Below are positions 62,396-62,996 of a stretch of 64,000 bases of DNA, in pieces (the stretch's first letter is position 1; each line of letters opens with the position of its first letter). The stretch lies in NCBI RefSeq assembly GCF_003334765.1, contig NZ_QOWT01000013.1. One strand, written 5' to 3'. Position numbers and translations under genes: made by a program. The notes under the pieces are model-generated. The model saw only the letters and a list, made by a program, of their open reading frames with translations. It was not told where the DNA came from and did no database searches. Origin of the DNA: Escherichia coli (GTDB lineage Bacteria; Pseudomonadota; Gammaproteobacteria; Enterobacterales; Enterobacteriaceae).

Positions 62396-62408
62396 TTTAG
62401 CGTCTTCA

Positions 62409-62437
62409 AGAGCCAGCGCCCGCTGGCTCTTTTTTTA
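62409..62437 (+). terminator. Rho-independent terminator after asnS
   Basis: AGAGCCAGCG-CC-CGCTGGCTCT perfect hairpin followed by TTTTTTT. Confidence 0.75.
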
Positions 62438-62507
62438 TCTTTTCTGTCAAGTTATCTGTTTGTTAAGTCAAGCAATCTATTTGCAACCCCGCCATAACGA
62501 TCATCCT

Positions 62508-62537
62508 GTTACGGAATATTACATTGCAACATTTACG
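62508..62537. promoter_or_regulatory. Possible distal OmpR site (F4-like) upstream of ompF
   Basis: GTTACGGAATATTACATTGCAACATTTACG, resembling the distal OmpR site as I remember it; position about 350-380 nt upstream of the proximal sites. Confidence 0.4.
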
Positions 62538-62545
62538 CGCAAAAA

Positions 62546-62578
62546 CTAATCCGCATTCTTATTGCGGATTAGTTTTTT
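62546..62578. terminator. Second hairpin / bidirectional terminator-like element in asnS-ompF spacer
   Basis: AAAAA-CTAATCCGC-(9 nt loop)-GCGGATTAG-TTTTTT. Confidence 0.45.
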
Positions 62579-62787
62579 CTTAGCTAATAGCACAATTTTC
62601 ATACTATTTTTTGGCATTCTGGATGTCTGAAAGAAGATTTTGTGCCAGGTCGATAAAGTTTCCATCAGAAACAAAATTTCCGTTTAGTTAATTTAAATAT
62701 AAGGAAATCATATAAATAGATTAAAATTGCTGTAAATATCATCACGTCTCTATGGAAATATGACGGTGTTCACAAAGTTCCTTAAAT

Positions 62788-62848
62788 TTTACTTTTGGTT
62801 ACATATTTTTTCTTTTTGAAACCAAATCTTTATCTTTGTAGCACTTTC
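62788..62848 (+). promoter_or_regulatory. Proximal OmpR-binding region (F1-F3) of the ompF promoter
   Basis: TTTACTTTTGGTTACATATTTTTTCTTTTTGAAACCAAATCTTTATCTTTGTAGCACTTTC: three tandem 20-bp AT-rich repeats with (T)TTAC/GAAAC cores, matching known OmpR sites. Confidence 0.6.
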
Positions 62849-62996
62849 ACGGTAGCGAAACGTTAGTTTGAATGGAAAGATGCCTGCAGACACATAAAGA
62901 CACCAAACTCTCATCAATAGTTCCGTAAATTTTTATTGACAGAACTTATTGACGGCAGTGGCAGGTGTCATAAAAAAACCATGAGGGTAATAAATA

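Follow-up and report, generated by a model that had tools for sequence, protein, structure and literature searches.

The ompF control region of Escherichia coli contains the proximal OmpR sites F1, F2 and F3, the distal OmpR site F4 and IHF sites, and is described as forming a repression loop between F4 and F1-F3. Footprint evidence for the OmpR sites of ompF is summarised in two papers (PMC3050692, PMC1489923). The DNA analyzed in this study, a window of 64,000 nucleotides, carries this same locus with near-identical sequence, and its OmpR part shows no difference from the one described. However, the published ompF loop model omits two elements of the window, a perfect hairpin (hairpin 2) and an antisense promoter within F4.

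Two other kinds of described element were compared with the locus. Bidirectional terminators serve convergent transcription units, and the hairpin that follows asnS (hairpin 1) likewise has 3' ends mapped on both strands. Unlike those terminators, hairpin 1 has its minus-strand end exactly at the foot of the stem, almost without a U tract (CUCUU). Hairpin 2 has the textbook look of a bidirectional terminator (A run, stem, T run) but no mapped ends. The cis-antisense or 3'-overlapping small RNAs of the 'C0240' type (Tjaden 2002, Stead 2011) are short, unannotated and opposite to their neighbors, as is the antisense RNA of the window, which like these candidates was detected by several genome-wide methods. 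In contrast to them, it has no U-rich 3' tail. Overall, our analysis supports, with a probability of about 75%, an account in which hairpin 1 terminates asnS, F1-F4 are OmpR sites, a short antisense RNA starts inside F4 and hairpin 2 lies outside the known ompF machinery.

The asnS-ompF spacer

The window is E. coli DNA with 99.8% identity to K-12. The asnS stop codon TAA ends at 62395 and the ompF start, ATGATGAAG, is at 62997. Between them lies the spacer (Table 1), an ordinary and already known regulatory region, namely the classical control region that separates asnS from ompF in E. coli. Its sequence is 100% identical to that of E. coli strain 720632 and 99.8% identical to that of K-12. 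Of 5426 complete E. coli genomes, 5425 have one copy of the spacer, and no annotated features were found inside it.

Table 1. Positions of features in and around the asnS-ompF spacer, in window coordinates.
Feature	Position	Strand	Remarks
asnS-ompF spacer	62396-62996		601 nt
Hairpin 1 and T7 run	62408-62436	3' ends on both strands	asnS intrinsic terminator
Antisense RNA, unannotated, ~102 nt	62408-62509	-	Cappable-seq TSS and TRS 3' end
Distal OmpR site F4 (probable)	62507-62537	+	Published position, motif, conservation
Antisense -10 hexamer TAATAT	62516-62521	-	Positions -12 to -7, from the sequence upstream of the TSS
Hairpin 2, perfect 15-bp palindrome	62541-62577	.	-33 to -69 of the antisense TSS
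Conserved block I, IHF-like	62696-62717	.	-192 to -171
CRP-like box TATGACGGTGTTCACA	62759-62774	.	Centre about -121.5
OmpR site F1	62787-62806	+	
OmpR site F2	62807-62826	+	
OmpR site F3	62829-62848	+	
ompF -10 AAAGAT	62877-62882	+	From sequence; +1 about 62887-62889
ompF 5' UTR	62888-62996	+	Known MicF target region

An earlier note on this DNA, made from its letters, had called the spacer the longest non-coding stretch in the window and AT-rich with A-tracts, and both descriptions were confirmed. The spacer is the largest gene-free gap of the window (601 nt), followed by one of 426 nt from hyaA to tRNA-Ser, in a ranking that used the PGAP gene calls of a collinear strain with 99.7-99.9% identity. 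The G+C content is 34% in the spacer and 51% in the window, and A/T tracts of at least four bases occur 25 times per kb in the spacer versus 9.7 in the window. However, the statement that this stretch is fully accounted for by known regulation did not hold, since hairpin 2 is absent from the published ompF models found, an unannotated antisense unit starts within F4, and conserved blocks at 62579-62632 are outside the known model.

The asnS terminator

Hairpin 1 is the intrinsic terminator of asnS and halts at least 98.5% of asnS transcripts at 62437-62440. It begins 13 nt past the asnS TAA and has two 11-nt arms (62408-62418 and 62421-62431) which are 100% complementary, giving a stem of 10-11 bp with 6-7 G-C pairs that is followed by T7 at 62430-62436. 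No shuffled sequence among 200 folded as well (dG -17.8, z -4.5). The stem is retained between genera by compensatory pairs (GAGCC/GGCTC, GGCC/GGCC, AAGCC/GGCTT and GGGTC/GGCCC). In K-12, 3' termini labelled 'Primary asnS' are located at 987540-987543 on the minus strand, with ratios of 0.985-1.0 (PMC10687069). These termini map to window positions 62437-62440 and represent a coverage drop of 98.5-100%. The earlier note had described a terminator-like hairpin with a T-run at 62409-62437 and had suggested Term-seq for the asnS 3' ends; the published ends at 62437-62440 agree with its description.

A second terminus, labelled 'ompF.asnS.IGR', is located on the K-12 plus strand at 987572, with a ratio of 0.79 (PMC10687069), and maps to window position 62408 on the minus strand, at the foot of hairpin 1. 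The 3' ends on both strands (62437-62440 on the plus strand and 62408 on the minus strand) indicate that hairpin 1 is used in two directions. However, the U tract at 62408 is scant, so the minus-strand end may be a trimmed or protected end and not a true termination.

An antisense RNA that starts inside F4

The published end maps, together with the sequence, show a minus-strand RNA of about 102 nt which runs from 62509 to 62408 and is transcribed from a TAATAT promoter inside F4. Its 5' end is the Cappable-seq TSS at U00096.2(+) 986694 (RRS 74.5, enrichment 4.59; PMC4782308), which maps to window position 62509 on the minus strand, within F4. The RNA overlaps the asnS 3' UTR and terminator, with read-through to 62336 within asnS, the position to which a further Term-seq 3' end at K-12(+) 987644 (PMC7815308) maps. 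In addition, a tiling array identified an opposite-strand transcript, 'C0240', between ompF and asnS (PMC3082872). The start-site and end-site maps thus concur on an overlooked antisense RNA with its promoter inside F4, and discussion of an overlap between F4 and an antisense promoter was not found in the porin literature searched.

The antisense -10 hexamer does not vary among nine E. coli alleles and E. albertii; Citrobacter has a degraded version, AAATAT, and the other genera have lost it. The -35 region, at about 62538-62544, is weak (TTTTGC / TTTGCG). The RNA is predicted to fold with a dG of -27.4 (z -3.2). An Rfam search returned only sub-threshold matches of terminator type. STnc430 was rejected as the identity of the RNA, with 18.3 bits against a gathering threshold of 47 and E values of 0.67-4.6 (minus strand, 62399-62525), and no match to STnc430 at the gathering threshold was present in the same spacer of 12 related genera.

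F4 spans +3 to -29 of the antisense promoter. It may be an operator of this promoter as well as a looping partner, with OmpR competing with RNA polymerase, a proposal that we regard as distinctly unlikely. Since the strongest antisense start of the asnS-ompF spacer (62509) has its -10 box and promoter spacer within the F4 footprint, OmpR-P at high osmolarity would switch off the RNA of ~100 nt. If the proposal were true, RNA polymerase on the antisense promoter at low osmolarity would exclude OmpR from F4, a competition step would be added to the ompF repression loop, and porin control would be coupled to the asnS mRNA. In that case hairpin 2 would insulate the small antisense unit on its upstream side.

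OmpR sites and the repression loop

F1-F3 are 20-bp units with AC dinucleotides at 62791, 62801, 62821 and 62843 in 10-bp phase, and they span -101 to -40 relative to a +1 at about 62888. The 2-nt gap between F2 and F3 has been noted previously (PMC1489923) and agrees with the window. The mean identity of F1-F3 across 12 genera is 0.82. These sites also gave the top three PWM scores, a result which is circular, as the PWM was built from F1-F3.

The candidate F4 shares a spaced motif with F1, TTAC-N6-TTAC, which is located at 62509-62522. The motif occurs five times in 64 kb versus 1.1 expected, and two of the occurrences are on the plus strand of the spacer, at 62509 (F4) and 62789 (F1). Within F4, T62509, T62510 and C62512 are invariant across 12 genera, and GTTAC is invariant or nearly so. 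Counted from 62888, positions 62508-62537 correspond to -380 to -351, where Huang, Schieberl and Igo reportedly placed F4 in 1994, and the F4 20-mer is separated from F1 by 260 bp. F4 has been described as a weak site 260 bp upstream of F1-F2-F3 (PMC3050692), which agrees with its place 260-280 bp upstream of them in the window. With a PWM from 36 F1-F3 orthologues (20 bp), F4 scored 5.6 and 3.5, which is not above shuffles and fits the description of a weak site.

The distance from F4 to F1b is 285-290 bp in 12 genera and exactly 290 in 6 of the 12; the distance from the terminator to F4 varies from 66 to 89. The spacing of F4 and F1 is thus held though the intervening DNA varies, as expected under the published model of a repression loop from F4 to F1-F3. 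In agreement with the literature, F1-F3 are probably the activating OmpR sites and F4 the weak distal site, with the identity of F4 resting on published footprints, taken second-hand, and on conservation. The positions given in the earlier note (F4 at 62508-62537, F1-F3 at 62788-62848) match those found here within 1 nt, and its mention of DNA looping fits the spacing found in the 12 genera.

Hairpin 2: structure, alleles and possible role in termination

The second hairpin of the earlier note, said to be flanked by A- and T-runs at 62546-62578, is real and is located at 62541-62577. Its 15-nt arms (62541-62555 and 62563-62577) are 100% complementary and enclose a 7-nt loop. The A5 and T5 runs belong to the arms, and position 62578 lengthens the T run to T6. 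A terminator scan passed over this hairpin solely because its T run forms part of the stem. Either strand looks like a terminator, with U6 after the stem on the plus strand (dG -21.2, z -6.6) and U5 on the minus strand (dG -20.3, z -5.6). The hairpin is unique in the window, where 0 matches are expected by chance. Membership of a repeat family was rejected, as it occurs once in the window and the genomes that carry it have a median of one copy and a maximum of two.

The exact 47-mer around hairpin 2 was found in 1407 of 5352 E. coli genomes (26%), including K-12, and the hairpin is imperfect in the other 74%. The other alleles are A46/C50 (1883 genomes), A46/T51 (1024 genomes) and A46 alone (at most 624). 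The outgroups have an imperfect hairpin, and the perfect form is derived. In the E. coli allele found most often, a stem of 9 bp remains on the minus strand and one of only 5 bp on the plus strand. The ancestral Escherichia allele likewise folds better as minus RNA (-15.7 versus a 5-bp stem), as does the E. albertii allele (-11.0 versus no hairpin). The minus-strand T run (TTTTTTGTGCG) is conserved between genera. No consensus structure was found by RNAalifold at 62535-62640 or 62500-62700 on either strand among 11 genera. Hairpin 2 appears to be an old imperfect palindrome which was perfected in the K-12-like lineage and which is located outside the known ompF machinery.

The earlier note had also read the two hairpins as tandem terminators. 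However, hairpin 1 removes 98.5-100% of asnS transcripts, and among the listed entries of the Term-seq (Adams 2021) and TRS tables that cover this region, which are thresholded, none places a 3' end at hairpin 2 (987400-987450) on the plus or the minus strand. The Term-seq data are from K-12 in LB at two densities and in M63. Little RNA arrives at hairpin 2. Read-through of asnS past hairpin 1 is at most 1.5%. Minus-strand TSSs are located at 62578, 62830, 62858 and 62889, and those upstream of hairpin 2 are weak (RRS 2.0-2.7) except for 62889. The signal at 62889 (RRS 22.9) may be an artefact, as it mirrors the very strong ompF +1 and lacks a credible -10 box.

If hairpin 2 is active, it would most likely be a two-way backstop terminator. 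On the plus strand it would catch the 0-1.5% of asnS read-through ahead of the ompF control DNA. On the minus strand it would halt stray antisense RNAs that originate in the ompF promoter region and keep them away from F4 and the antisense promoter. That backstop activity of either kind matters in vivo is possible, at odds somewhat below even. Hairpin 2 lies directly upstream of the antisense promoter and behind a terminator that is already about 99% efficient. Flanking A and T runs around a perfect stem do not suffice to make a hairpin a functional terminator; the one here belongs to a minority allele and has had no RNA ends mapped to it.

Alternative explanations

The alternative that survives best is that hairpin 2 has no function and is a neutral quasi-palindrome which either drift or template-switch correction, a process known for imperfect inverted repeats, happened to make perfect in the K-12-like lineage. 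We consider this somewhat unlikely. In its favor, the perfect form is derived and confined to a minority of genomes (26%), several disrupted alleles, CCTAGA and CCTGGA among them, are in circulation, no 3' ends are listed at the hairpin, and no structure is conserved between genera. In addition, window positions 62546, 62550 and 62539 differ from the commonest allele, all toward more complementarity. However, in roughly 90% of E. coli genomes the 9 bp of the core stem all pair, with no more than one wobble, and the sequence of hairpin 2 is better conserved (0.69) than the spacer's variable parts (0.50-0.54). Conversion by a single templated patch should moreover have included 62540, which is still C; a single template-switch event was thus rejected, and at least two events would be needed. 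The T at 62550 is common to other E. coli alleles and Citrobacter, and its polarity is thus ambiguous.

It is unlikely that hairpin 2 is a minus-strand terminator of antisense transcripts from the ompF promoter region, perhaps 'C0240', which would shield F4 and the antisense promoter. The U run conserved between genera is the minus-strand one, three of four E. albertii arm substitutions and the major-allele C50 pair G-U only in minus-sense RNA, minus-strand TSSs exist at the four positions given above, and an opposite-strand transcript has been reported (PMC3082872). However, no K-12(+) 3' end is listed near 98744x, other genera have weak hairpins (-6 to -7.5 kcal/mol), and no structure was returned by alifold. 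The evidence from wobble pairs is divided. Wobbles only in the minus RNA are found in 35% of genomes, and 19% carry the opposite kind, which pairs in the plus RNA alone. Since every transition within a stem yields a wobble on exactly one strand, such counts are weak evidence, and a strand call from them was rejected: the 35% allele and E. albertii favor minus, while the 19% allele favors plus. The sole consensus-grade promoter upstream (TTTACA-18-TATGAT, 62736-62707) also has no mapped TSS. This predicted minus-strand promoter, with 10 of 12 matches, was rejected as the source of a 160-nt RNA with its end at hairpin 2, as no Cappable-seq TSS is listed at 9865xx and the conservation of the block that its -10 overlaps has other causes.

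The tandem arrangement, in which hairpin 2 is a second plus-strand terminator of asnS and the whole spacer is explained by known OmpR/IHF regulation, is improbable. In the window allele, the plus-strand RNA has a 15-bp stem followed by U6 with the folding energy given above (-21.2, z -6.6), and hairpin 2 lies about 140 nt downstream of hairpin 1 in the same orientation. However, the coverage drop at hairpin 1 already amounts to 98.5-100%, and no K-12(-) 3' end is listed near 98740x. The plus-strand stem is reduced to 5 bp in the commonest E. coli allele, and the plus-strand T run after the stem is found only in E. coli (TAATTT in E. albertii and CATTTT in Citrobacter). The antisense unit and the conserved block at 62579-62632 also fall outside the known model.

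A role at the DNA level, either as the operator of a dimeric regulator or as a cruciform that aids the F4-to-F1 loop, is very improbable. The perfect inverted repeat adjoins F4, and the region is moderately conserved as sequence and not as RNA structure. However, the arms show no covariation and are asymmetric outside the K-12-like lineage, where only the right arm (TTATTGCGGATTAG) and the left-arm A-run are conserved, and no known ompF regulator with such a half-site was found.

Least credible, to the point of being nearly dismissed, is a minus-strand small protein encoded by the spacer, for which a 42-aa ORF (62674-62546) and a 13-aa ORF (62504-62463) are both present in the sequence, with the label of putative small ORF for C0240 (PMC3082872) and an AGGA 8 nt upstream of the second ATG of the 13-aa ORF in its favor, since neither ORF is intact among nine E. 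coli alleles and E. albertii. The 42-aa frame is shifted in L086 and is cut short by an in-frame stop in L090; its own stop codon is found only in the K-12-like allele, and no TSS lies upstream of it. The 13-aa ORF is likewise interrupted by a stop in L086, and the E. albertii sequence has a stop and no ATG.

Other conserved blocks and the distribution of F4

The spacer alignment covered 12 genera, with Salmonella, Klebsiella, Enterobacter cloacae and Cronobacter not among them. By sequence and comparison, two further elements are conserved with no change in spacing, one IHF-like (about -180) and the other CRP-like (about -121). Block I has a mean identity of 0.87 across 12 genera. Its minus strand at 62700-62712, TATGATTTCCTTA, has two mismatches to WATCAANNNNTTR in E. 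coli and one in most genera, where 1.6 one-mismatch matches per spacer are expected by chance. A second IHF-like match, with one mismatch, is located at 62820-62832. IHF footprints upstream of ompF are presumably located at about -180 and -60, and the link to IHF bending made in the earlier note is plausible for the block at about -180. The CRP-like box has one mismatch to TGTGA-N6-TCACA, equalled by 8 of 500 shuffles. TCACAAAGTT is invariant across the 12 long spacers, and the CRP-like box is largely kept in the short ones.

The short spacers, those of Yersinia, Serratia and Erwinia, are 294-306 nt long and have no F4. The absence of F4 from Yersinia has been reported (PMC3050692). As judged from this distribution, F4 and its ~300 nt probably date to the Enterobacteriaceae, and their confinement to that family would explain why Yersinia has no F4-type repression. 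An origin of these 300 nt by duplication of the proximal region was rejected, as the local alignment score of 21 is below the shuffle mean of 26. The short spacers of the three genera also contain block I, which in them is located ahead of the asnS terminator.

Conservation climbs to 0.88-0.92 from 62871 on. The ompF 5' UTR, which we take to be ~110 nt long, has a mean identity of 0.92 across 12 genera. An alignment of the Yersinia and Photorhabdus ompF 5' UTR spans roughly 111 nt (PMC1489923), in agreement with this length. Lastly, a Term-seq 3' end is located inside the ompF 5' UTR at 62930.

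Identity and composition of the spacer

The spacer between asnS and ompF (62396-62996, 601 nt) is the known ompF control region. It shares 100% identity with strain 720632 and 99.8% with K-12, where pncB, asnS, ompF and aspC are the RefSeq genes flanking it, and it is single-copy in 5425 of 5426 complete E. coli genomes, with no annotation inside it in any. The earlier note placed the main parts of the region correctly and described the spacer as AT-rich with A-tracts and as the longest non-coding stretch in the window. Both descriptions agree with our counts: G+C content is 34% in the spacer versus 51% in the window, A/T tracts of at least 4 bases occur at 25 versus 9.7 per kb, and the longest gene-free gaps are 601 nt (the spacer) and 426 nt, as ranked with the annotation of a collinear strain 99.7-99.9% identical to the window. 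The left edge (62396-62407) is unusually divergent. Three aligned genomes of one group (L088-L090) have a different sequence in the 12 nt that follow asnS, and their asnS stop codon is TGA, not TAA; many other spacer matches (97.3-97.6% identity) start only at query position 13.

Features of the asnS-ompF spacer, in window coordinates
Feature	Position	Strand	Details
asnS end	62395
Hairpin 1	arms 62408-62418 / 62421-62431		perfect complementarity, then T7; dG -17.8, z -4.5 (folding)
Antisense RNA	62509-62408	-	unannotated; published TSS and 3' ends
F4 (distal OmpR site)	62507-62537		-380 to -351; 260 bp from F1-F3
Hairpin 2	arms 62541-62555 / 62563-62577		perfect 15-bp palindrome, 7-nt loop
Block I (IHF-like)	62696-62717		mean identity 0.87; minus strand reads TATGA(T/A)TTnCTTA
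CRP-like box TATGACGGTGTTCACA	62759-62774		1 mismatch to consensus; centre about -121.5
F1 (proximal OmpR site)	62787-62806		AC dinucleotides in expected 10-bp phasing
F2 (proximal OmpR site)	62807-62826		AC dinucleotides in expected 10-bp phasing
F3 (proximal OmpR site)	62829-62848		AC dinucleotides in expected 10-bp phasing
ompF -10 box AAAGAT	62877-62882		+1 near 62888
ompF start	62997

The two hairpins

Hairpin 1 is the asnS terminator and is very efficient. In K-12 the primary asnS 3' terminus lies at 987540-987543(-), where the coverage-drop statistic is 0.985-1.0 (PMC10687069, Supplementary Data 2-4). These positions convert to 62437-62440, directly past the T run, so the published end maps uphold the terminator proposed in the earlier note. 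The stem is preserved in other genera through compensatory pairs.

Hairpin 2 was proposed as a second, tandem terminator. The structure itself is real: the sequence occurs once in the window and folds stably on both strands (dG -21.2 on the plus strand, -20.3 on the minus strand). The tandem-terminator role is weak for several reasons. First, read-through past hairpin 1 is at most 1.5% by TRS coverage drop. Secondly, no 3' end is listed at hairpin 2 on either strand in the Term-seq data for three conditions (Adams et al. 2021) or in the TRS tables, and K-12, the source of these maps, has the perfect allele. Third, the perfect 47-mer was found in just 1407 of 5352 genomes. The A46/C50 allele (1883 genomes) has a mismatch that is a G-U pair in minus-sense RNA only, and the A46/T51 allele (1024 genomes) one that is a G-U pair in plus-sense RNA only; A46 alone occurs in at most 624 genomes, and several more disrupted forms also exist. 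Lastly, RNAalifold detected no shared hairpin 2 structure across genera on either strand.

E. albertii and other genera have A at 62546 and 62539, which indicates that the perfect form is derived. Hairpin 2 is an older, imperfect repeat that became perfect in one lineage. The T run kept across genera is the minus-strand one, and for both E. albertii and the commonest E. coli allele the minus-sense RNA gives the better fold. These hints favour the minus strand but are not decisive, because any stem transition wobble-pairs on exactly one strand. Our best guess, at about one chance in three, is that hairpin 2 serves as a two-way backstop that is seldom used; the probability of a neutral palindrome is about the same.

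In a urine isolate (L091, NZ_OZ121091.1, 2686-3393), IS200C is inserted immediately behind ...GATTAGTTTTTTCTT, a short way 3' of hairpin 2. This junction corresponds to window 62581 and the other directly follows the ompF terminator's T run; ompF and its entire control region were thus deleted. Both junctions come after hairpin-plus-T-run sequences.

OmpR sites and conserved blocks

The proximal and distal OmpR sites of the earlier note agree with published relative positions (PMC1489923, PMC3050692). F1-F3 cover about -101 to -40, the 2-nt gap preceding F3 matches one described in PMC1489923, and the position of F4 relative to F1-F3 agrees with PMC3050692. F4 and F1 have in common a spaced motif, TTAC-N6-TTAC, with five occurrences in 64 kb, two of them in the spacer. 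A PWM derived from 36 orthologous F1-F3 sites scored F4 no higher than shuffled sequence, in keeping with the view of F4 as a weak site. The comparative evidence for F4 is stronger than the PWM evidence. Across 12 Enterobacteriaceae genera the GTTAC of F4 varies little or not at all, and the distance from F4 to F1b is 285-290 bp in all 12 (exactly 290 in six), despite poor conservation of the intervening sequence 62633-62694. The terminator-to-F4 distance drifts from 66 to 89 across genera. Such a constrained F4-F1b distance would be expected of a looping partner.

Block I has 1-2 mismatches to the IHF consensus and is centred near -182; a candidate IHF site here would fit the IHF footprints near -180 and -60. 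In the CRP-like box, TCACAAAGTT is invariant in 12 of 12 long spacers, and the box is largely kept in short ones. Three distances are the same in 12 of 12 genera: block I to CRP-like box, block I to F1b, and F1b to -10 box. In addition, 62579-62632 is moderately conserved, with ATAGCACAATTTT at 62585-62598 and GGCAnTCyGGAyG at 62613-62630. TAGCAC at 62588-62593 is similar to GTAGCAC, which is invariant in F3b, and shares the 10-bp phasing of the F4 AC dinucleotides.

Evolution of the spacer

Spacers fall into two length classes. Long spacers measure 544-618 nt in 11 Enterobacteriaceae genera, plus one 786-nt outlier, and short spacers (245-324 nt) occur in Pantoea, Erwinia, Serratia, Yersinia, Pectobacterium, Brenneria, Photorhabdus, Arsenophonus and others. 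The short type runs from the asnS stop through block I, terminator and CRP-like box to F1-F3. In the long type the terminator directly follows the stop codon, and about 260 extra nt, bearing F4 and hairpin 2, lie upstream of block I. Since this DNA is present only in long spacers, F4 is an Enterobacteriaceae innovation, consistent with its reported absence from Yersinia (PMC3050692). No trace of a duplication origin was found for the extra DNA. In the first 40 nt of short spacers (L013-L023, L071), block I is likewise conserved and lies between the asnS stop and the terminator, inside the asnS 3' UTR; the 40 nt at E. coli 62719-62758 replace that terminator and look like its decayed remnant.

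An antisense transcription unit overlapping F4

A transcript, 'C0240', has been reported between ompF and asnS on the strand opposite both genes (Stead et al. 2011, PMC3082872). Cappable-seq placed a TSS at U00096.2 986694 on the K-12 plus strand, with an RRS of 74.5 (cut-off 1.5) and an enrichment of 4.59 (Ettwiller et al. 2016, PMC4782308). In window coordinates this TSS is 62509(-), with TAATAT at exactly -12 to -7. The TRS plus-strand terminus 'ompF.asnS.IGR' at K-12 987572 (ratio 0.79; PMC10687069) converts to 62408, the far foot of hairpin 1, and an additional plus-strand Term-seq 3' end at 987644 (Adams et al. 2021, PMC7815308) converts to 62336, within asnS. Taken together, the mapped start and ends define an RNA of about 102 nt on the minus strand, with some read-through. 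The core promoter of this RNA falls within F4. Relative to the start, hairpin 2 occupies -33 to -69, and the 3' end is bounded by hairpin 1. Every E. coli allele examined, and also E. albertii, has the -10 box, which is not kept beyond Citrobacter. The RNA matched no Rfam family, and its small ORF is not conserved.

The spacer was said to be fully accounted for by known regulation. This does not stand, because an unannotated antisense RNA arises in it, with a promoter that overlaps F4, and because 62579-62632 is conserved without an assigned factor. From position, OmpR at F4 may control the antisense promoter, competing there with RNA polymerase; this is the most interesting remaining reading.

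The remaining minus-strand TSSs in the spacer are weak. A signal at 62889 (-), with an RRS of 22.9, is doubtful because it mirrors the ompF +1 and has no credible -10 box; either it arises artefactually from the high abundance of the ompF 5' end, or it marks a true divergent start. On the plus strand, Term-seq 3' ends lie at 62930, inside the ompF 5' UTR after ...CCGTAAAT, and at 63009, 12 nt into the coding sequence; both have been discussed as possible premature termination (Adams et al. 2021, PMC7815308). In E. albertii (L002, 8529-8571, minus strand), about 2.5 kb downstream of ompF and unrelated to the spacer finding, the Rfam sRNA ES036 (CssrF) matched with 44.1 bits against a gathering score of 37.6.
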